NCBI GenBank assembly: GCA_965261085.1
Contig: OZ253442.1
Coordinates: 768,001 to 832,000, forward strand
Direction of reading: 5' to 3'
Length of the DNA: 64,000 bases
Origin: a bacterium
GTDB lineage: Bacteria > UBA8248
This document shows positions 15,154-39,715 of the stretch, one piece after another (positions within the stretch are counted from its first letter, which is position 1; every line of letters begins with the position of its first letter). Both the position numbers and the translations under genes were made by a program. The notes beneath the pieces were generated by a model. That model was not told the DNA's origin. It saw nothing but the letters and a program-made list of their open reading frames with translations, and searched no databases.

Positions 15154-16077
15154 TTATTTCTTTTTGGTTTTTCCCTTTGTTGATGTTTTGGCAGGTTGAG
15201 ACTTGCTGATTTGCATGAATACCTTGCCGTCTTTCAGTACAGTAACACTTCCTGTTGACTCGCTGATAGCGAATGATATGGCTGTGCTTACTTCCGTTAT
15301 ACCCGCCCCAGCCATATGACGCGAACCCAATCCGGCTGGCAAATCATTTTCAGGTGCCGCGTTTAGGTGTCTGCCGGCGGCTTCGATGATTCCATCTCCC
15401 CGAATGACGAATGCTCCGTCGATGGCGCTGAATTCCTTGATGGTTTCGCGTAGAGCTGGGTCCATGATGTTTCTTTGCTCTTCCGGGTATCCATGAAAGG
15501 GATTGATTACGAGTTGGCGTGAATACTGAAGCACCAGATCGTGGTCTCCCAGCACAAAAAGCGCCCCGCGAGGTTTTCCTTCTCGTCCTTCAGCACCAAG
15601 TTCGAGGGCGAGCGACAAGACTGTTTCAAACACTTTCGGGTCTACACCCCCAACGGCGCTTTGGGTTTCCGATGTTTGGAGCATTTCTTTTTCACGGTCT
15701 AAATGAAAGACCATGAGGGTGTCAATCTCTTCGTTCTCAGGTAAGCCTGAAAGGCAGACCACGGTGTCATTCTGTGTGATGGAACCTTCGCTCAAAGCAA
15801 TGACGACACCCATCTTGATAATGTCGATTCGATTCAAGGATAAGGCGGGTAATTGCATCACCTTGCAATCTCGCTTTTCCAATTCTTCGTAAAGGTCGGG
15901 GGAACAGGTGGTGGTGAAACGCTCTACGCCCATGGGGAGGTCCATCAAGGCGTCAAGATTCTTCATCGCGTCAGCGTGAATGAAAATTGCCTTGGCCTCC
16001 AGTTCATTGCAGATTTGTGAAGCCGCGGCAATAATACTTTCACTGAGGCCAGCTTGCTTTTCGATCGGTGCTCTCAC
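15154..16077 (-). CDS. Diadenylate cyclase (DisA_N domain, DacZ-like architecture)
   Basis: EGREGKPRGALF, IDGAFV (DGA), GLGSRHMA (RHR variant), ISESTG. Confidence 0.85.
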   Translation of the reverse strand: MRAPIEKQAGLSESIIAAASQICNELEAKAIFIHADAMKNLDALMDLPMGVERFTTTCSPDLYEELEKRDCKVMQLPALSLNRIDIIKMGVVIALSEGSITQNDTVVCLSGLPENEEIDTLMVFHLDREKEMLQTSETQSAVGGVDPKVFETVLSLALELGAEGREGKPRGALFVLGDHDLVLQYSRQLVINPFHGYPEEQRNIMDPALRETIKEFSAIDGAFVIRGDGIIEAAGRHLNAAPENDLPAGLGSRHMAGAGITEVSTAISFAISESTGSVTVLKDGKVFMQISKSQPAKTSTKGKTKKK

Positions 16078-31478: not shown

Positions 31479-31664
31479 GGGGCGACTCCTTTCTTGAGTG
31501 AATCCCGGACCGGGCAAGGCGGCGTCCCGGGGACGAATCGACTCGTTGTCCGCCGTCGTGATTGCGGGCTGCATTGCGAAGCCTCTCATGGTCGAACCTC
31601 CTCCCCGTTTGCGGAGCATGTTGGCCGTATGCGCATCTCCACCATTTCCGCTTGAATGCCCACC

Positions 31665-31775
31665 GGCCCCCGCTCGCGTGAGCCTCGCCGCCCCCGGCGC
31701 GAAGCCGGAGGCGGCGAGAGGGGGTGGCCCGCCGCGTGATGGGTCCGGGGAATGGGCGGCGGGCTTGCGCTCAAC
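31665..31775. repeat. About 110 bp GC-rich 3' flank of lipoprotein A, duplicated at about 34130-34240
   Basis: Shared GCCGCCCCCGGCG...GCGGCGAGAGGGG...TGATGGGTC.GGGGAATGGGCGGCGGGC. Confidence 0.8.
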
Positions 31776-33856
31776 TACTGCTTATACGCCCCGAAGGAGC
31801 CGAGGATGCTTCGGAGGTTATCCGACGAATTGGCGCCGAACGTCCCGGCTATGGAGCCGGGTTGCTCGGTCGCGCCTGCGCCGTTGCCGTAGAATTTGGC
31901 GGCCCACTTGCCGGAGTAGCCGCCGCCGCTCGTCTCGCCGTCGAAATTCCCGCCGCTGAAGCTGTTGGTGATATCGGCGGAGCCGAGCGTCAGGCTTGGC
32001 AGGGCGCCGCCGCCATCCGTACTCCCCCCGGTGATGGCGCCGGTGACGCTTCCCAGCGCGGTCGCGTCGCCGAAGTTGGCCGTCAGGCGCGCCGTGGCGT
32101 CGAAATAATCGAATTCAGGCGCGGAGGAAGAACTCGCTTTGCTCATGTACATCCCGCTCGCGGGTCCCGCATAGGTCGCCGAACCGGTGAGTCCTGCGAG
32201 GTTGTTCACGCTGAAGGGGTCGTTGCCGCTCGCGGCGGTTCCGAATCTGAAGCCTGTATAGATCCCGTCGGCGTCCTTGAAGCCGACCAGCCAAATCCCA
32301 TAGGCCAGATAGTCCGTGTCCGCGTTGTCCCGGATATCGGAGTAGACGGCCGTATAGGCATCGCGAGCGTCGGTCTCGCTACTGCCTTCCACGCCTTTCC
32401 AACCCGCCGCGGGCGAGCCGGAAAACCTCTCGACGTATGCGCCTGCATCTTTCGTGCTGACGCTGAACGAGGGGGTATTGTCCGCTAATCTGCGTGTGCG
32501 GGTGTAGTGCAAATCCCCGTTCGCATCGTATTCCATGGTGAAGGCTATTTTGTCGTTGGTCTGGCCACCGAAGGAGTAGGACGATTGTGTGGTGTGGCCG
32601 ATTCCCTGGTAGGTCCCGAAAGTCCTTCTCGATTTCGCCGCCCGCCGTATGCGGATGTCCGCGCCTTCCGCCAGCGCGGCGTCCGCCTCGAGGGCGTCCA
32701 CAAGTATGTTGCGGCCACCGGACATCGGGCTTGAAGACGGTCTATGCGCGCCGTATGCGCCTACGAAGTTCACGATACCGTCCGTAGAACCTCCGCTTAA
32801 CGTCCCGGCGACCGAGCCGGGCATTCCGCCGGTTTCTCCGTTGCCGAAGAATTGGCCGCTCCAGTTGCCCGTGTAGCTGCGCGATTCGACGGAGCCGCTC
32901 ACTTCGCCTATGAAGAAGCCGTTATGCGAGGAGCCGATATTTGCGGCTCCCAGGTTCAACGAGCCGGTTAGTGGTTCGTCGTCGTAGAGATTGGTGATCG
33001 AGCCGCCGATCGTTCCGAGGGCGCCCGCCCCGCCGAAGTCAGCCGTCAAAACGACGTCACCGCCAATGGTATTGACCGGAACTTCATCGGTCGTATCCGT
33101 AGCCACGCCTATCGCATTCCCTTCATAGCGCGCCGTGCCTTGCAGGGCCGTGAGGTTGTTCTGCCGGAAAGGATCGCTGCCGTCCGAAAACGCGCCGAAT
33201 GCATAATCGGCGACGCTCGACGCATCGCCGGGAACGAACAGCCAGATCCCTCCCACCAGGTAGTCGGTGTCCGGGCCGCCGCCCTGCTGTGGATCGGGAG
33301 CAGCGATGTCCGTGTATACATCGATATACAGAACACCGGCGTTGATGCGCTCGCGCAGCGCAACGCCCTTCCAGGGTGATGGGGCATCCGATATCTGGAG
33401 CGGGTTCCCTTCGTTCATGCCAAGCGACCATTCCGACCCGTTGCGCAGCGAAAAACGCGGTACGCCCGTTCCATGCTCCGCAGTGACTTCCACCTGGTCG
33501 GTTGTGGTGTTGTTGCTGTCCACATTTGAAGACTGGGTAACGCTGCCCGGATTAGGCTGGGCTTGCGCTGCCCGCGCGATCACACTCACTGCGTTGGTGG
33601 CCGTCGTCTGATCTTCGAGGGCTTGCTCTCGTGTCGGGATGGTCGCCGGTGGATCCATCGAACCGCCGCCGGTCATTCCACCGCCGCCTCCGGGCATTGG
33701 TGTCGGCATCTGGGCGGGTTGGCCGCCCATGTTGGCGCCTCCGCCTCCTCCACCCCCGCCGCAGCCCGACAGCGCGAAGGCGCAAACCAGCGCGAGCAAT
33801 ATCAACACGAACGAGAGAGATGTTTTTTGCTTGAGTTGCTTTTTGGCGTTTCTCAT
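31775..33856 (-). CDS. Bilobed TbpB-like surface lipoprotein A
   Basis: Lipobox LSGC + poly-Gly; two internal repeats each with DTDYL...GIWL, G.DPF..NNL.L.G.A.Y.G, LTA.FG, F(F/Y)GNG...PGS.AGT...GA.GA. Confidence 0.75.
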   Translation of the reverse strand: MRNAKKQLKQKTSLSFVLILLALVCAFALSGCGGGGGGGGANMGGQPAQMPTPMPGGGGGMTGGGSMDPPATIPTREQALEDQTTATNAVSVIARAAQAQPNPGSVTQSSNVDSNNTTTDQVEVTAEHGTGVPRFSLRNGSEWSLGMNEGNPLQISDAPSPWKGVALRERINAGVLYIDVYTDIAAPDPQQGGGPDTDYLVGGIWLFVPGDASSVADYAFGAFSDGSDPFRQNNLTALQGTARYEGNAIGVATDTTDEVPVNTIGGDVVLTADFGGAGALGTIGGSITNLYDDEPLTGSLNLGAANIGSSHNGFFIGEVSGSVESRSYTGNWSGQFFGNGETGGMPGSVAGTLSGGSTDGIVNFVGAYGAHRPSSSPMSGGRNILVDALEADAALAEGADIRIRRAAKSRRTFGTYQGIGHTTQSSYSFGGQTNDKIAFTMEYDANGDLHYTRTRRLADNTPSFSVSTKDAGAYVERFSGSPAAGWKGVEGSSETDARDAYTAVYSDIRDNADTDYLAYGIWLVGFKDADGIYTGFRFGTAASGNDPFSVNNLAGLTGSATYAGPASGMYMSKASSSSAPEFDYFDATARLTANFGDATALGSVTGAITGGSTDGGGALPSLTLGSADITNSFSGGNFDGETSGGGYSGKWAAKFYGNGAGATEQPGSIAGTFGANSSDNLRSILGSFGAYKQ

Positions 33857-34068
33857 TTTTGCTCTCCTCAAACAGTGGAAGATGGCTACTCGCCGGACCG
33901 CAGATGCAGACCGGACTATCGGTGACCAGGACCACGATTGAAGAGATGGTTTGCCGCTGTTTCGCTCTCCGGGAGATGGAGAGGGTTTTCTATTCAGCGG
34001 CTAACTGAAATCGACAATCGTGATTTTTGTGGCGGAGAAATGATCGGATAGAAAGGTGGGGATGTCAA
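33857..34068 (-). promoter_or_regulatory. Promoter + structured 5' leader RNA, copy 1 (precedes lipoprotein A)
   Basis: TTGACA-17-GATCAT; nested stems CACGATTG/CAATCGTG, CCGCTG/CAGCGG, CTCTCC/GGAGAG. Confidence 0.65.
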
Positions 34069-34238
34069 ACGCGAGTGGATGAGGAAAACACCAGGCGGCG
34101 GCGAGTTTAATGCTCCGTTCCCGATAGTGGCCCGCTCACGAGATGCCCCGCCGCCCCCGGCGAGGAGCCGGGAGCGGCGAGAGGGGTTGCCCGCCGTGTG
34201 ATGGGTCTGGGGAATGGGCGGCGGGCCTTTGCGTTCGG

Positions 34239-34410
34239 CTACTGTTTTTACACCCCGAAAGCGCCGATGAAGCTTTGTAGCCCATCCGCCGTAGTCGCCC
34301 CGAAGGCGCCTGCCACGGAGCCGGGATGATCGGTCGCGCTTGCGCCGTTGCCGAAGAACTTCCCGCCCCACGTGCCCGAGAAGGCGACGCTGCTACTCGT
34401 TCGCCACTGG
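34239..34410 (-). pseudogene. C-terminal remnant of a third TbpB-like lipoprotein
   Basis: AFSGTWGGKFFGNGASATDHPGSVAGAFGATTADGLQSFIGAFGV*KQ*, paralogous to the lipoprotein A C-terminus with a premature TAA where A has Tyr. Confidence 0.8.
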
Positions 34411-34474
34411 CGGCGCTGCCGGCAGAGCCTTAATCACCGCAAAGACAATCTTCAACCTCGCGCCTCTTGATTGT

Positions 34475-35410
34475 TTATTGTCTGCGCTCTGTGTTGAATC
34501 CTCCTATCAACGCGCGACCTTCTGTGGTGCCGCCGACTAGTCCTCCCGGGTAATAACTAAACGTCCCCCCGGCTTCTTCCTGATTCGGTCCATAAAATGC
34601 ACCTGACAGCCTGTTTGAGTTCTGGTTGTAGGAGAAGCGTCCATTGTTTATTGCCATGTTGTTGTAATTGATGGGTGACAGGCTCCTGTCTTCGAACTCA
34701 GAGAACGTTGCGTCCGCTGTCATGTCTGTGAAATCGACGTTTATTTGCGCTGTTGCAGTTCCGAGAGTTCGTGGACTATTCGAGTCAAAGACTACAGCGA
34801 TTCCGGTCCATGTGGCGCTCCCTTGTGCCGGATTATTTCCGGTCACATAGCCTGTTGAATAGGCTTGTGAAAGATTACTGCTTCCAAGACCGACAATGGT
34901 TCCTGAGAACAAATATATCTCCTGGAAGCTATGACTACCCCATACTCCGATACCCCTAAAATCAAGATCTTCAAACGAGTACCCTTGGTAAGTCGTGTTG
35001 CTCATTCTTTCTTGATACCGCCCGATTGTAAGATTGGTGCCGCTTGGTGTTTCCGTGTTGTACCTGCTGATGCTTACTTCTACTGGTGGTCCCAAGTCTA
35101 TTGGAGTCGCTATTGTCAGTCCTTCACTGTTGATGATGGAGTCTGACCAAGAATAGGCATTTGTCCTATTGAATATACCGGAGAGTTTTTCGCCTGGTGT
35201 GCCTCCGGGAGTACCGCCCGTATCGTCGGAGCCGCCACCGCCGCCGGGCATCGGGTCCGGCGTCGGCATTACCATCGGCTGATTCGAGGTCGTAGAGCCT
35301 CCTCCTCCCCCGCCGCAGCCGGACAGCGCGAAGGCGCAAACCAGCGCGAAAACGAGCAGCACGAACGAGAGAGTTGTTTTTTGGTGGAACTGTTTTTGCG
35401 CGTTTCTCAT
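34475..35410 (-). CDS. Single-barrel TbpB/HupA-like surface lipoprotein B
   Basis: Signal nearly identical to lipoprotein A (ALVCAFALSGCGGGGGG); AT-richer body with GSATWTG and LSGAFYGPNQEEAGGTF. Confidence 0.75.
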   Translation of the reverse strand: MRNAQKQFHQKTTLSFVLLVFALVCAFALSGCGGGGGGSTTSNQPMVMPTPDPMPGGGGGSDDTGGTPGGTPGEKLSGIFNRTNAYSWSDSIINSEGLTIATPIDLGPPVEVSISRYNTETPSGTNLTIGRYQERMSNTTYQGYSFEDLDFRGIGVWGSHSFQEIYLFSGTIVGLGSSNLSQAYSTGYVTGNNPAQGSATWTGIAVVFDSNSPRTLGTATAQINVDFTDMTADATFSEFEDRSLSPINYNNMAINNGRFSYNQNSNRLSGAFYGPNQEEAGGTFSYYPGGLVGGTTEGRALIGGFNTERRQ

Positions 35411-35623
35411 TTTTGCTCTCCTCAAACAGTGGAAGATGGCTACTCGCCAGACCGCAGTTGCAGCCCGACTATCGGTGACCAAGACCACGATTGAAGAGAT
35501 GGTTTTCCCGCTGTTCAGTACCCCAGAGGATGGAGAACATCTTGTTTTCAACGGGTTAACTGAAATCGACTATCGCGGTTTTCGTGGCGGAGGAATGACC
35601 GGTGATAACCGCTCGAATGTCAA
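35411..35623 (-). promoter_or_regulatory. Promoter + structured leader, copy 2 (precedes lipoprotein B)
   Basis: TTGACA-17-GGTCAT; same three stems with G-U and compensatory changes. Confidence 0.65.
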
Positions 35624-35887
35624 ATACATGATTCATAAAGACAGACTGCAGCGGCGAGATTCTTGTCGCTTCTTGGGTGTTTGGGTGATCTAGTAGTTAA
35701 TTTTTTTTAAAAAAATAATCACTTTTTTTGAGGAAAGGGGTAGATTTCTGAGGGCATTTTCCGCAACATTGTCAAATGCACTTCGCTGTATTCGAGGTTT
35801 CCCGAAGCTCCGTTTCTTTAGAAAGGATTAACAATCACAGAAAGCCCTTGGTCGGCGATTCAGGTTGAAGATGAATGGGCGGGGCAT

Positions 35888-36106
35888 TTTCTTCTTCCGG
35901 GACAGTGAAAGAGGGCTGTTTTCCCGACCGCGAACGCAGTCGGGCTGTTTGCCACAAAAACCACGATTGAAGAGATGGGTTTCCCGCCTATTCCGGCCTC
36001 CAGGAAACTGGAGGCCGTATTCTATTTAGCGGGCAGCCCGAAACGGCCGGCTGCCGTGGCTTTTGTGGCAAACAAGATGATCGGACATGGAACCCCGCCT
36101 TGTCAA
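35888..36106 (-). ncRNA. Promoter + structured leader, copy 3 (orphan; followed only by a 19-codon ORF)
   Basis: TTGACA-18-GATCAT; long closing stem TGTTTGCCACAAAA.CCACG/CGTGGTTTTTGTGGCAAACA; apical stem GGCCTCCA/TGGAGGCC. Confidence 0.55.
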
Positions 36107-36249
36107 ATGAATCAGGCGACTTGTAGATCAAGCATGACGCGAATGTATGCCGAAAATTGGCGCAAACGGCGGAAATTTTCGGCATTTCTCGATTAATGAG
36201 AAAGGCGGCGATTCGCCCGGCCACGAGACAATAGCGTTGTTTGCTGTAA

Positions 36250-36395
36250 AAACCACGATTTTAGAGATGAGTTTCCCCCTGTTGTGCTCTCCAGGGGGAT
36301 GGAGATGCGTCTTGTATTCAGCGGCTGGTTCGGTGTTGGGTCCTCGTGCTTTATTTCGCTAGAGAAATGATCGGACAGGAAATTCTAAATGTCAA
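36250..36395 (-). ncRNA. Promoter + structured leader, copy 4 (orphan, degenerate)
   Basis: TTGACA-17-GATCAT; CCGCTGAATA, TCTCCA/TGGAGA, CATCTCT..AATCGTGG. Confidence 0.5.
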
Positions 36396-36607
36396 TCAAA
36401 ATCGAACGGGCGGGGCGCCATCCTTTGAAGAATGTGGGCGAGGAATTGCGTATTGATGTCTTTCTCGTCCTCGGCAAACCCCTCATCGGTCGGGATTGAC
36501 CCTCCTCATTGACACCACCCACCCCTCATGAAAGCATCGCGGGAAACGTCATCAAACCAGCGGGTGCTTTCGCCGCCTGCTCCCGCCTCTCGATAAGGAG
36601 AGCGAAG

Positions 36608-37207
36608 ATGTTTCGGCGTATCGCTCGGTGCGTGGTGGTGACGTGTCTGGCGGCGGTTCTTGCGGCGTGTGCGTTCGCCCCGCATCAGGCTCAGGCTGCC
36701 GGGCGGGACGTCGTTTTTATTAAAGCGTTTTATGCGCTCGATGAGCCGAGGTTTCACTGCGTCGACGTTCCGGGGCACCGCTCCCGCGTCAACACCGCTG
36801 CCGCCTTGGTCGTACACACCTGCAAGGAAGGCATCTGGAACCTCGATGGGCATTTCGACCCCGCCGCCGTAGCGAAGGGCCTGCTCAGGATGCCCGAATA
36901 CGGATTGTGCGTCGCCGCTGCTTCCGCCTCGGACGGCGCCAAGCTCATGCTCGGAAAATGCGACGGCACAGCCCTTCAGAACTGGCGTTTTGAGAACTAC
37001 CGCTTGAGCCTCAAGGCGCATCCCGATAAATGCCTCACCATCGGCCCGGAACCCTCCCGGCTCACGCGGGGCGGGCGCAGGCTCCCGAGCCGTCACATGG
37101 CGCGCTCGCTCGCCCTCGCCACCTGCTCGGAAGAAGCGCTAGAGAGACAGCTCTGGCGCATGGAGAAGCCCATGGATCGCACCGGCTCCATCATGCCCTT
37201 CAAGTAA
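36608..37207 (+). CDS. Secreted ricin-B (beta-trefoil) lectin-like protein
   Basis: Signal peptide; CVDV...TC, LCV...KCD...QNW, KCLT...TC...QLW repeats. Confidence 0.75.
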   Translation: MFRRIARCVVVTCLAAVLAACAFAPHQAQAAGRDVVFIKAFYALDEPRFHCVDVPGHRSRVNTAAALVVHTCKEGIWNLDGHFDPAAVAKGLLRMPEYGLCVAAASASDGAKLMLGKCDGTALQNWRFENYRLSLKAHPDKCLTIGPEPSRLTRGGRRLPSRHMARSLALATCSEEALERQLWRMEKPMDRTGSIMPFK

Positions 37208-37351
37208 AGACGACGCGCGGATATCACCGGTTGACGCAACCCATCATTGGGAGAGAAAAGCGAAAGAAAGCGGCGCAACCCGGAGCCCTTCTATCGATTG
37301 GGTAATCCCCGTTTGATTTTGGGCATCACGAACACGAGGAGGATCCACCCC

Positions 37352-39715
37352 ATGTCTTTCCGTAAAAACACGTCCACAAGCAAGGTGTGCGCTTTCGCGC
37401 TGGCGTCGCTGTTGGCGCTGGGGCCGGCCGGTTGCGGGGGCGGCGGCGGGGGCGGCGGCGCAACCATGGGCGCCCCGCCCGCCACAATGCCGGGCCAGCC
37501 GCAACCTGGGGGGACCGAGCGGGTAAGAGCCACCGTCCTGCCCCACCCGAGAGGCGCCGGGGACGTCGCGTCGCTCGCGTGGGAGGACGTGACGATTCCC
37601 ACGCGGGCGGGCGTTCGGCAGCGTCTTCTGCTCGCCAAAGCGGGGAATGCGGGGACCAAGTCAGTGATTCTCTTCATGGGCGGCCCGGGAACGCCGATTA
37701 CGTTTCCGCGAGAGGGAGGCATACGGCTCAGCGGCAATTTTCTCGTAAGAAGCTCCGCGCTCTTCGCCGAGGCGGGATTCGTCACGGCCATCATCGACGC
37801 TCCCTCGGACAGGAGCGAAGGCATAAACTTTTCATTCAGGCAGTCGAGTCAGCATCATGCGGACGTGCGTGCGGTGGTGGATTTTCTGGTGAGCGAGGGC
37901 GCGCGCGAGGTGTACCTGATCGGCACGAGCAACGGCACGATGTCCGTTGCATATCTGGCCTCTGTGATTACGCATCCGAGAGTTGCGGGCTATGTTCTCA
38001 CCGCGAGCGGGAGGTCGATAGTGTCTTATGCAGGTGAAATCAGAGACCCCGTCCTGATGGTGCATCACACGGACGACGGGTGCGCCGGCACGCAGTTTTC
38101 CGATGCGCAGACTACATTCAACGCGATCACGAACAGCCCGCGCAAGGAGTTCGTCTCCGTAAGCGGAGGGGATCCGCAGATAAGCCCCAGTCCTTGTCAG
38201 GCGCAGACCGCGCATGGGTTTATAGGCAAAGAGCGTGAAACGGTGGCGGCGATCGCGGAGTGGGTAAATACAGGGACGGTCACGGACACGAACCTGCTCA
38301 CGGACGAGGACGCGCCCTCGCCGCACAAGGCGTGGCTCGCGCGCTTCGGGCGCACGGCGGCGGAACACGTCACCGAAGCCATCGGCGATCGGCAGCGCGG
38401 AGCGCCAAGCTCGCGCCTGACCCTGGGCGGTCAGGATATCGACTTAGGTGTCTCTCCCCTCCCCCTGGCGGATGCAGATTCCGGCGCGCGCTTTGCGGAG
38501 GGTCTGCTCGATGCGCGCAGCGGAGACGCTTTCGCGGGGCGCGAGATGTCGATGAGCGAGTTGCTGCTGGCGAGTTCTTTCCACCTGGCTTCTGCGGAGG
38601 GAAAGGATGTAGGCGGCGGCTGGTCGCTCTGGGGAGGTGCTGCGCGTTCGAACTTCGATGCGAAAGAGGGCGCGCTCGCACTCGACGGCGACGTCTCCAC
38701 GGCGACACTGGGCTTCGACTTCGAACGGGAGCGGTGGCTGGCCGGCGTGGCGCTCTCGCGCAGCGCGGGAGAAGGCACGTTCAAGATGGGCGGAACCTGC
38801 GCTTCGGGGTGCAGCGGCGATCTCGAGAGCACACTCACCGGCGTGTATCCCTATGCGCGCTATCGCTTCAGCGAGCGTCTTTCGGCCTGGGGAATTCTCG
38901 GCCACGGGCGCGGGGAGTTGACGCTCACCACGCAGGGAAGAAGCCCCGTCGAGACCGACATCGAGATGAACATGGCGGCGTTCGGGGGGCGCGGCGTCCT
39001 GCTGCCCGCTGTGAGCAAGGGTGATTTCGAACTAGCGCTTCGCTCGGATGCGCTGCTGACGTGGACGAGTTCCGAAGAGACCCGAGATCTCGCGGAGACG
39101 GAACCGGAGACGAGCCGCCTGCGGCTCGCGCTCGAGGTCTCCCGTGCGTTCGCGCTTGATTCGGGCGCGAGCCTCACTCCTTCTCTCGAAGTGGGTCTGC
39201 GCTACGACGGGGGCGACGCGGAGACGGGAAGCGGCGTCGAGCTCGGCGGCGGGCTTCGCTACACGGGTTCGGGCCTCACGATACAGGTGAATGCCCGCGG
39301 ACTGCTGGCGCATGCGGATAGCGAATATGAAGAATGGGGCGTGAGCGGCTCGGTGCGCCTCGACCCGGGCGAGAGAGGACGCGGTTTGTCCATGCGCTTG
39401 GGTTCGTCCTGGGGCGCTTCGGCGGGCGGTGCGGAGCAAATTTGGAACGGGCGCCGCGCGGCGGGTCTGAATGGAAACGGAGAATTCGACCCGGGTTCGC
39501 ACCTCGATGCGGAGGTGGGCTATGGTCTGGGCGGCATGGGCGGCCTCCTCACCCCCTACGGCGGCATGTCGGTCTCAGAGAGTGTGCAGACCTACCGCGT
39601 GGGTAGTCGCTTCAGGCTCGATGAGCGTTTCAGCATGGGCCTGGAAGGTGAGCGCCGCGAGGGCGGCGATGACGTCGAACACGGGCTCGCGCTGCGCGGC
39701 TCCCTCCGCTGGTAG
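37352..39715 (+). CDS. Lipoprotein autotransporter with alpha/beta-hydrolase passenger
   Basis: Lipobox PAGC + poly-Gly; GTSNG nucleophile elbow, Asp (TDD) and His (AHGF); AWLARFGRT linker; beta-barrel ending GSLRW. Confidence 0.82.
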   Translation: MSFRKNTSTSKVCAFALASLLALGPAGCGGGGGGGGATMGAPPATMPGQPQPGGTERVRATVLPHPRGAGDVASLAWEDVTIPTRAGVRQRLLLAKAGNAGTKSVILFMGGPGTPITFPREGGIRLSGNFLVRSSALFAEAGFVTAIIDAPSDRSEGINFSFRQSSQHHADVRAVVDFLVSEGAREVYLIGTSNGTMSVAYLASVITHPRVAGYVLTASGRSIVSYAGEIRDPVLMVHHTDDGCAGTQFSDAQTTFNAITNSPRKEFVSVSGGDPQISPSPCQAQTAHGFIGKERETVAAIAEWVNTGTVTDTNLLTDEDAPSPHKAWLARFGRTAAEHVTEAIGDRQRGAPSSRLTLGGQDIDLGVSPLPLADADSGARFAEGLLDARSGDAFAGREMSMSELLLASSFHLASAEGKDVGGGWSLWGGAARSNFDAKEGALALDGDVSTATLGFDFERERWLAGVALSRSAGEGTFKMGGTCASGCSGDLESTLTGVYPYARYRFSERLSAWGILGHGRGELTLTTQGRSPVETDIEMNMAAFGGRGVLLPAVSKGDFELALRSDALLTWTSSEETRDLAETEPETSRLRLALEVSRAFALDSGASLTPSLEVGLRYDGGDAETGSGVELGGGLRYTGSGLTIQVNARGLLAHADSEYEEWGVSGSVRLDPGERGRGLSMRLGSSWGASAGGAEQIWNGRRAAGLNGNGEFDPGSHLDAEVGYGLGGMGGLLTPYGGMSVSESVQTYRVGSRFRLDERFSMGLEGERREGGDDVEHGLALRGSLRW

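Follow-up and report, generated by a model that had tools for sequence, protein, structure and literature searches.

What are the four similar, promoter-led elements that follow one another on the minus strand between positions 33857 and 36395 of the stretch analyzed here, two of them directly before lipoprotein genes? The stretch (64,000 nucleotides (nt) of contig OZ253442.1, positions 768,001 to 832,000, from a bacterium of the lineage UBA8248) is hereafter called the window. The initial annotation proposed a candidate new structured RNA, namely a promoter-coupled leader with covarying stems and a built-in anti-Shine-Dalgarno (anti-SD) sequence. From sequence comparisons and predicted folds, we consider it probable that the four copies are cis-acting two-state 5′ leaders, and that they are 5′-extended, pseudoknotted relatives of the catalogued sRNA-Xcc1 (Rfam family RF02221). 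Instead of a wholly new class, we see in them a new but well-defined variant of the sRNA-Xcc1 kind; the cis-regulatory reading of the anti-SD is supported.

All four copies are present as described, with cores and promoters at the positions listed in Table 1. The −10 box, 17-18 nt past TTGACA, reads GATCAT in copies 1, 3, and 4 and GGTCAT in copy 2. A consensus promoter scan of positions 31500-36700 returned exactly three sites, which are those of copies 1, 3, and 4 (10 out of 12 matches, spacers of 17, 18, and 17 nt), while copy 2 escaped the scan because position 2 of its −10 hexamer is a G. The aligned copies have a mean column identity of 74% and are the only four members of a 49-nt repeat family; the covariance model described below (R1) scores them with 86-131 bits. 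They fall into three subtypes (copy 3; copies 1 and 2; copy 4), each of which recurs in congeners. The stems and linkers of the initial annotation were found again: P1 (CACGATTG/CAATCGTG), P2 (CCGCTG/CAGCGG and CCCGTTG/CAGCGGG), and four P3 pairs that differ from copy to copy. P1 is longer than first stated, with 15 base pairs (bp) in copy 3, and a fourth helix (CGGGCUG/CAGCCCG) that crosses P1 had been overlooked. Copies 1 and 2 keep five to six of the seven pairs of this crossing helix, with one compensatory change from G-C to A-U.

The canonical form of the element is clearer in further copies found with nhmmer profiles elsewhere in the 4.27-Mb genome than in the copies of the window. Read from 5′ to 3′, its first half consists of the P1 5′ strand (13-19 nt, variable), a linker, CGGGYY, the P2 5′ strand CCCGCU, GAAUACAAGAC, and the variable hairpin P3. 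The second half continues with GGAAUAG, the P2 3′ strand GCGGG, AACCCAC, a loop, GUGG with the rest of the P1 3′ strand, AAC, and RRCCCG. As CGGGYY/RRCCCG and P1 cross each other, these two helices would jointly make up a pseudoknot.

Covariation supports these helices, as the initial annotation had claimed for the stems. Across 60 genus-level matches, 85.1% of the cells are paired and the covariation score is 0.337, compared to at most 0.078 with slid partners. For 69 diverse matches (67 distinct rows), the corresponding values are 88.0% and 0.391, compared to 0.060-0.093 with slid partners, and none of 500 shuffles scored as high; these alignments were fitted to a model that already holds the crossing helix, P2, and P3, and their rows are related to each other. 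Among the 67 distinct rows, pairs changed on both sides amount to 15 out of 15 in P1, 3 out of 8 in the crossing helix, 6 out of 6 in P2, and 5 out of 5 in P3, the P1 columns being derived from one reference sequence and counted separately. They were taken from a single row because the RNAalifold fold of the MAFFT alignment, in which the P1 strands are out of register, missed P1. The crossing helix is 93% paired across the diverse matches, and the frequent G-U pairs fit an RNA transcribed from the sense strand.

The family extends well beyond the locus. R1 was built from 12 copies and comprises 133 positions and 19 pairs. In the own genome it has 15 matches, of which 12 reach E<=5e-14; the match at 2082299-2082438 is a confirmed family member. 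R1 matches occur in 24 out of 101 genomes (own genome counted), with up to 18 copies per genome. The other positive genomes are 20 of the 22 congeners, one from a second genus in the family, and two from a different family in the same class. A search of a species-representative genome collection with a degenerate pattern based on the two most conserved strands gave 91 matching stretches. Eighty of these were analyzed, and R1 scores 69 of them at E<=5e-5. Their records are titled Nitrospinota, Vicinamibacterales, Candidatus Marinacidobacterales, Terriglobia, Acidobacteriota, Longimicrobiales, Gammaproteobacteria, Alphaproteobacteria, Puniceispirillaceae, Versatilivorator, and Endozoicomonas ascidiicola. 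The 11 stretches without an R1 score (records titled Bathyarchaeota, Gallionellaceae, Peribacillus, Lachnospiraceae, and others) correspond roughly to the number that we estimate the pattern to match by chance. Whole-genome R1 searches of five genomes of other lineages gave 7, 9, 2, 5, and 1 copies, many of which do not fit the search pattern, so the family is not an artefact of that pattern. In viral contigs, three out of four pattern matches also score with R1. We found no description of this leader family in the literature. The family is widespread, uncatalogued, and below the Rfam threshold.

Members of the family have a preferred position relative to promoters and genes. TTGAC is found within 60 nt upstream of 33 out of 65 members, compared to 1 out of 65 in a control window, and 26 of the 34 TTGAC occurrences lie 30-32 nt before the model match, a distance that puts the start of P1 close to the predicted transcription start. 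A Shine-Dalgarno (SD)-like motif with a start codon and an open reading frame (ORF) of at least 80 amino acids (aa) follows within 200 nt in 35 out of 65 members on the sense side and in 8 out of 65 in the antisense control. This is contrary to the random placement relative to genes that a miniature inverted-repeat transposable element (MITE) would predict. The median distance to the downstream start is 42 nt, and most members stand 26-67 nt before the start codon. A hydrophobic N-terminal segment is present in 30 of 36 downstream ORFs (18.6% of the 2182 long ORFs of the genome have one), many with a lipobox. Fourteen out of 34 downstream proteins contain a Pfam family, and 20 contain none. 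The families are TbpB_B_D (three), Glyco_transf_25 (three), Trypsin (two, one with collagen repeats), OMP_b-brl/Surface_Ag_2 (two), and Sel1, Sulfotransfer_3, Plasmid_RAQPRD, and DUF4875 (one each). The sense-side position before genes for exported proteins thus points to a 5′ leader of exported, envelope, and surface-modifying protein genes rather than a randomly placed repeat. The initial reading as a promoter-coupled structured leader is borne out by the promoter scan, the covariation, and this position.

How the leaders might act is best seen in copies 1 and 2. As first proposed, the conserved UCUCUUCAA is complementary to UUGAGGAGA, the ribosome-binding site (RBS) of the lipoprotein gene that follows, over 9 bp with one G-U. 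A CCA(U/C)...GUGG hairpin can form, the loop of which is the anti-SD in these two copies and the 3′ strand of which also belongs to inner P1; the last three bases of UCUCUUCAA in copy 1 are likewise part of the P1 3′ strand. In both the predicted minimum free energy (MFE) fold and the centroid fold of copies 1 and 2, P2 and P3 are retained, UCUCUUCAA-UC-GUGG is paired with CCAC-UGU-UUGAGGAGA, and P1 is open, in agreement with the idea of mutually exclusive folds, one of which masks the SD. This pairing encloses a hairpin in which the crossing-helix 3′ strand takes part. The initial annotation had noted a hairpin before the RBS in copies 1 to 3, which is indeed present; its use of the crossing-helix 3′ strand, by which it competes with the crossing helix, had been overlooked. 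The same arrangement recurs in other members.

Other members reach a comparable alternative by different means. In the genome copy at 3369671-3369793, GUGACAACCGGCCCGG and CUGCCGGUUGUCAU form a terminator stem of 16 bp, followed by a U run; the 5′ arm of the terminator consists of the 3′ strands of P1 and the crossing helix, and the full-length fold favors the terminator. Acidobacterial members have at the P1 3′ end a GGCGAC that is complementary to a GUCGCC immediately preceding AUG (with the variants GGCAAC/GUUGCC, GUGACA/UGUCAU, and GGCAUCC/GGAUGCC), and the crossing-helix 3′ strand pairs with a downstream complement; for two of these members (L155 and L086) the full-length fold prefers P1. 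In the copy at 765576-765711 of the own contig, a second version of the P1 3′ strand is found around a downstream GGGAGGAUUGUAUG and could pair with the P1 5′ strand instead, and the loop UCUUCCAAAU is complementary to AUUGGGAGGA. Over all members, the complementarity of the next 110 nt to the P1′/PK′ strand has a mean z of −1.0, with z<−2 in 14 out of 64 members. For the segment from P2 to the crossing helix, the member's own downstream region is the best partner in 7 out of 66 members and within the top 5% in 15 out of 66.

Taken together, each leader would start at its own sigma-70-type promoter and act in cis on the gene after it. The segment 3′ of the core would choose among three pairings: with the 5′ end of the transcript (P1), within the local CCAC/GUGG hairpin, or with sequence further downstream. 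With P1 and the crossing helix formed, the RBS would be free or, for one genome copy, the terminator would be prevented. With both open, the anti-SD loop (copies 1 and 2), a P1 3′ strand beside the start codon, or the terminator would block expression. Because P1 plus the crossing helix excludes the terminator or RBS masking in every case examined, we infer that the P1-plus-pseudoknot form is the ON state. The leaders would switch between folds in the cell, and binding of an effector to the conserved core, be it a small molecule, an ion, a protein, or another RNA, would set the balance.

Several observations weigh against this two-state cis-acting reading. The sequence fits P1 and the crossing helix either coexisting as a pseudoknot or alternating. 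The predicted default state differs among members, P1 being formed in the MFE folds of L155 and L086 and not in those of copies 1 and 2 or the terminator copy. The local CCAC/GUGG hairpin reaches at least four contiguous pairs in 49 out of 66 members in cis compared to 58% in trans, which is marginal, and the duplex statistics are modest (median z of about −1, z>0 in 17 out of 64 members). Copy 4 lacks the crossing helix and most of P2 and has lost much of the core. Finally, the downstream genes are a mixed, non-metabolic set, as is uncommon among classical riboswitches, and those named by Pfam include none for making, transporting, or using a candidate ligand.

The last point bears most directly on the possibility that the leaders are true riboswitches, in which core and pseudoknot form an aptamer and ligand binding stabilizes P1 and the crossing helix and so activates surface-protein genes. 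Such a reading sharpens the preferred explanation rather than opposing it, and we hold it to be possible, though only tentatively so. Between the covarying stems, the nucleotides of the junctions show high conservation in several phyla, although part of this conservation is imposed by the search pattern, as the two loop strands of the cross-phylum rows from the pattern scan are fixed by construction. The element begins at the predicted transcription start, terminator-type and RBS-type platforms both occur, and the number of copies per genome is high, as in second-messenger riboswitches. The sRNA-Xcc1 relatives, in contrast, stand on integron cassettes, genomic islands, and phages before unrelated genes. 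GGDEF domains were found in all five carrier genomes tested and therefore do not discriminate between candidate signals. Diadenylate cyclase (DAC) domains were found in four of the five, which is mildly against cyclic di-AMP (c-di-AMP) as the signal; in the fifth (G104), a carrier of five copies whose completeness is unknown, no DAC domain was found, making a c-di-AMP riboswitch unlikely. The initial annotation had seen a local resemblance to the 5′ part of the c-di-AMP (ydaO) riboswitch. That the leaders are divergent members of this class is hardly credible: the likeness to ydaO sequences is local and limited to CGCUGAAU...AGCGG and the GGGAACCCA that follows. The ydaO model RF00379 had no match at E<=10 in the whole genome, while it exceeded its cut-off in 2 out of 14 control genomes, and the Rfam scans of the region, of six other genome copies, and of 18 cross-phylum loci gave nothing for it either. 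With the negative RF00379 search and the missing DAC match in G104, we rejected the c-di-AMP reading. As a side observation, one of the two DAC matches of the own genome lies in the window (15223-15597, minus strand, 76.8 bits).

The copies could also be genes for trans-acting small RNAs (sRNAs), with copies 3 and 4 and the terminated products of copies 1 and 2 pairing through the UCUCUUCAA loop with the RBSs of lipoprotein mRNAs elsewhere. Copies 3 and 4 do have a promoter and no gene, copy 3 carries UCUCUUCAA in a form identical to that of copies 1 and 2, and a weak terminator-like site follows copy 4 at 36218-36203 (minus strand). As far as the available text of the sources goes, sRNA-Xcc1 is a discrete 88-nt RNA of Xanthomonas campestris with Northern blots and mapped ends (PMC2996969), and seven homologues are transcribed in Xylella fastidiosa Temecula1, where five stand in a tandem array on a genomic island (PMC12189769). 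We nevertheless regard this alternative as rather unlikely, for most members stand in sense direction at a narrow distance before a start codon, the complementary target is more often the member's own downstream region than that of another member, and the anti-SD is lost in copy 4, where UCUCUAAAA stands in its place. Less likely still is that the core serves as the binding site of an RNA-binding protein (Hfq, ProQ, CsrA-like, or dedicated) which decides the fold. A broad regulon that looks horizontally acquired and the occurrence of the core on mobile elements and phages would suit such a protein, as would the Hfq-binding signatures given for the Xylella homologues in the accessible part of PMC12189769; conservation over at least four phyla, however, demands an equally conserved partner, and not every member has a GGA motif in its loop, the copy that is best conserved within the genus having GAAAUAGG. 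As for a mobile or recombination DNA repeat without RNA function (MITE, attC-like, or end of an insertion element), the many dispersed copies per genome, the relatives in integron cassettes, and a 1.4-kb repeat of two congeners that ends in a truncated copy (see below) speak in its favor. Outer P1 (GCCAAAC...GTTTGGC) loosely resembles attC core sites. This reading is very improbable given the orientation bias, the promoter at a fixed distance, the G-U pairs frequent on the sense strand only, and an internal loop that is conserved across phyla, unlike in attC sites. The attC idea itself was rejected for the orientation bias, the promoter coupling, and the variation of outer P1 (GTGTGGC, GTTCGGC, GTGTGAC).

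The two-state leaders thus remain our preferred reading, and the features of the four copies and of the two adjoining genes are listed in Table 1.

Table 1. Features of the four leader copies and their adjoining genes; positions are those of the window.
Feature	Position	Strand	Details
Promoter, copy 1	34040..34068	−	TTGACA 34068-34063, 17-nt spacer, GATCAT 34045-34040
Leader core, copy 1	33908..34038	−	R1 91.7 bits, E 2e-20
P1, copy 1	34022-34015 with 33940-33933	−	
P2, copy 1	34000-33995 with 33959-33954	−	
P3, copy 1	33983-33978 with 33970-33965	−	
Crossing helix, copy 1	34008-34002 with 33918-33912	−	Weakened, 5/7 pairs
Anti-SD UCUCUUCAA, copy 1	33938..33946	−	In loop of CCAU..GUGG hairpin (P4 equivalent)
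Hairpin preceding RBS, copy 1	33893..33914	−	5′ arm is the crossing-helix 3′ strand
RBS and start of gene 1	33854..33871	−	UUGAGGAGA 33871-33863, ATG 33856-33854
Gene 1, 693-aa lipoprotein	31775..33856	−	LSGC lipobox, then Gly run
Promoter, copy 2	35595..35623	−	TTGACA 35623-35618, 17-nt spacer, GGTCAT 35600-35595
Leader core, copy 2	35461..35593	−	R1 96.8 bits; anti-SD 35499-35491
RBS and start of gene 2	35408..35425	−	UUGAGGAGA 35425-35417, ATG 35410-35408
Gene 2, 311-aa lipoprotein with TbpB-type beta-barrel domain	34475..35410	−	Pfam TbpB_B_D, E 1.2e-6, 29.5 bits (cut-off 26)
Promoter, copy 3	36077..36106	−	TTGACA 36106-36101, 18-nt spacer, GATCAT
Leader core, copy 3 (most canonical)	35937..36074	−	R1 130.8 bits
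P1, copy 3	36069-36055 with 35965-35951	−	
Crossing helix, copy 3	36040-36034 with 35947-35941	−	
P2, copy 3	36033-36028 with 35988-35983	−	
P3, copy 3	36016-36009 with 36002-35995	−	
Promoter, copy 4	36367..36395	−	TTGACA 36395-36390, 17-nt spacer, GATCAT
Leader core, copy 4 (degenerate subtype)	36229..36364	−	R1 86.2 bits

Genes 1 and 2 both encode a Gly-rich linker directly past the lipobox; a Pfam search with the protein of gene 1 gave no family. Downstream of copy 3 there is a frame of about 20 codons and an A/T-rich stretch, followed by the promoter of copy 2 and no gene; copy 4 has no gene of its own either. Decayed fragments of lipoprotein genes are present in the locus (repeats D3, D6, D7, and D11). 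Copies 3 and 4 are probably leftover leaders of lost lipoprotein genes, and may still be made as small RNAs. Past gene 2, the segments 34229-34394 and 34145-34226 (minus strand) form a 76-93% identical copy of the 3′ end of gene 1 and its downstream flank (repeats D3, D7, and D11). This stretch looks like the remnant of a lost lipoprotein gene and fits duplication and decay at the locus.

Some further features of the window surround the four copies. Two paralogous large frames on the plus strand (37247-39715 and 39828 onward) have a common 140-nt repeat (D4) at 79% identity; in the 822-aa product of the former, a Gly run comes after the lipobox, and the C-terminal part is autotransporter-barrel-like by reading of the frame. 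Neither is preceded by a copy of the motif. Between copies 4 and 3 (36149-36187, minus strand) lies a perfect 12-bp inverted repeat, ATGCCGAAAATT...AATTTTCGGCAT, without a T run after it. On the plus strand, at 35994-36017 and 33965-33983, P3 of copies 3 and 1 and the complement of the GAAUA loop resemble a terminator, with a hairpin and then a T-rich tail; there is no end of a plus-strand gene near these sites.

Outside of the window, three other settings of the motif were observed. The copy at 765576-765711 (plus strand), 2.3 kb before the start of the window, is the best conserved one of the genus and near-identical in many congeners. Downstream of it come a second version of its own P1 3′ strand (GGGAGGAUUGUAUG), a six-codon frame, and repeated modules, and about 0.8 kb further on a hicB/hicA-like pair (named from reading of the frames). 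Its subtype precedes lipoprotein genes in congeners. At 1672667-1673206 (minus strand) of the own contig, three tandem copies (one truncated, one canonical, and one divergent), two with their own TTGACA, stand before one gene for a 466-aa lipoprotein. Two congeners (G002 and G013; loci L170-L173) contain in several places a repeat of about 1.4 kb with 94-98% identity that ends exactly at a truncated copy of the motif. This copy lacks the P1 5′ strand, and the repeat carries a divergent 239-aa frame; it may be a mobile element with half a leader.

The relationship to sRNA-Xcc1 emerged from matches below the Rfam threshold (the gathering cut-off of RF02221 is 53 bits). At the gathering score, Rfam 15 has no match in the whole window. 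At E<=10, the region gives five chance-level matches to snoRNA and miRNA models, none of them RF02221, and at E<=1 six other genome copies give two chance matches away from the motif. Among the 18 cross-phylum loci, by comparison, five RF02221 matches at E<=1 (27-34 bits) lie exactly on the element, and the RF02221 scores of cross-phylum members range from 24 to 36 bits, all below the cut-off. Whole-genome searches with RF02221 gave six matches in G102 and two in G104, each at an R1 place, and three in G101 away from R1 places, all of them below the cut-off; neither the own genome (G000) nor G105 has a match at E<=1. The initial statement that the element belongs to no known Rfam class is therefore correct at the gathering score, but needs to be qualified for the sub-threshold RF02221 matches on cross-phylum members and the shared core. 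True sRNA-Xcc1 (at least 53 bits) is found in 8 out of 149 sampled genomes of the class of G105 (9 out of 151 with two unpublished genomes), and R1 weakly matches 4 out of 23 true sRNA-Xcc1 loci.

According to the available portions of the sources, sRNA-Xcc1 is located upstream of symE in the most widespread integron cassette of Xanthomonas (bioRxiv 10.1101/2025.06.18.660453) and before an ORF6N gene in some APSE phages (bioRxiv 10.1101/2020.03.17.996009). In 9 out of 15 true sRNA-Xcc1 loci, inspection showed at least seven contiguous nt in the second-hairpin loop that are complementary to the SD region of the following gene; a permutation test on these loci was weak (the cis partner was best in 2 out of 15) because SD cores are shared. 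This complementarity suggests that the catalogued sRNA-Xcc1 acts in cis. Chen et al. reportedly called it trans-acting in 2011. In Gammaproteobacteria (L184-L207), a terminator-like GCGG-T-run was observed before each true sRNA-Xcc1, and the gene 30-45 nt past each is SymE-like, KilA-N/ORF6N-like, or without assigned identity.

A wider reading, which we put forward with reserve and consider rather doubtful, takes the Xcc1-type core with its P1 and pseudoknot extension for the aptamer of an orphan riboswitch superfamily of wide distribution. In response to one common signal of cellular or host origin, the superfamily would turn on genes for exported and surface proteins as well as genes acquired horizontally, 'sRNA-Xcc1' being the terminated OFF product and not an sRNA in the classical sense. 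Such genes would include those on integron cassettes and in phages as well as the lipoprotein repertoires of marine bacteria that are still uncultured. If the two-state model itself is right, a catalogued, unexplained 'small RNA' would be recast as the core of a cis-acting switch, and one promoter-bearing RNA module would control a large part of the exported-protein and surface-lipoprotein repertoire in uncultured bacteria of several phyla, including at least 15 loci in the own genome. Both the signal that chooses which surface proteins are displayed and the real role of sRNA-Xcc1-type RNAs on integrons, islands, and phages would be directly testable. In practical terms, Rfam-based annotation misses the family, and its leaders are easily mis-called as small ORFs. 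Widespread before exported-protein genes across phyla and below the Rfam threshold, the family is a good candidate for experimental work.

Among known systems, the antisense RNA c4 of bacteriophages P1 and P7 (RF01695 and its clan) is processed and acts on the phage antirepressor operon. Like the present family, c4 is a structured RNA, the loops of which are complementary to an RBS region further down the same transcript, where translation is blocked; unlike the present family, it has no P1-type 5′ strand. RF01695 matched neither the six other genome copies and 18 cross-phylum loci at E<=1 nor the region at E<=10, so homology to c4 is not supported and the likeness is one of logic alone. The c-di-GMP-I (GEMM-I) riboswitches occur in many copies per genome, control surface, adhesion, and secreted-protein genes, and use terminator- and RBS-type platforms. 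The copy number, the surface genes, and both platform types recur here, while GEMM-I gave no Rfam match on the window, the region, the six genome copies, or the 18 cross-phylum loci. More generally, the family has the riboswitch traits of a covarying aptamer-like domain in a predicted 5′ untranslated region and a competing expression platform. The Brt1-9 RNAs of Bartonella are, by the part of the report available, highly structured multi-copy RNAs of about 200 nt, each directly upstream of a gene, for which the authors propose trans-acting sRNA as well as cis-acting riboswitch-like roles linked to a surface adhesin (Tu et al. 2016, PMC5387305). By description alone, they resemble the present family in being multi-copy, structured, and placed before a gene, but the genes downstream of Brt1-9 encode helix-turn-helix regulators and the Brt family is confined to one genus.

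The closest likeness is to sRNA-Xcc1. Both share a helix (CCGGG/CCCGG), P2, an internal loop AAUACAA.AC / GGAAUA, a short P3, and the P2 3′ strand. In sRNA-Xcc1 a second hairpin follows, the place of which would be taken here by ACCCAC...GUGG. The first hairpin with its AAUACAA.AC / GGAAUA loop is found in all four window copies, with small changes, and in the true sRNA-Xcc1 loci. The closing helix of RF02221 (GgCcGGg / CccCCgGcC) has an intact homologue in copy 3, five to six of seven pairs in copies 1 and 2, and a broken one in copy 4; at locus L150, the Rfam model and R1 put the same nucleotides into it. Both RNAs stand shortly before genes, and both form tandem arrays (five copies about 380 nt apart in Xylella, four copies here). 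Only the present family, however, has a 5′ extension of 13-19 nt that pairs with the 3′ strand of the second hairpin and a linker (P1). The closing helix, which simply closes the fold in sRNA-Xcc1, crosses P1 here and would thereby be pseudoknotted. The models differ accordingly in length (133 positions here compared to 87 for RF02221). The present family precedes chromosomal genes for exported proteins, while sRNA-Xcc1 precedes cassette, phage, or toxin genes. The carriers of the present family are titled Nitrospinota, Acidobacteriota, and Gemmatimonadota besides Proteobacteria. Judged from these comparisons of sequence, the present family, while not a member by Rfam's criterion, is best described as a 5′-extended, pseudoknotted sister of sRNA-Xcc1.

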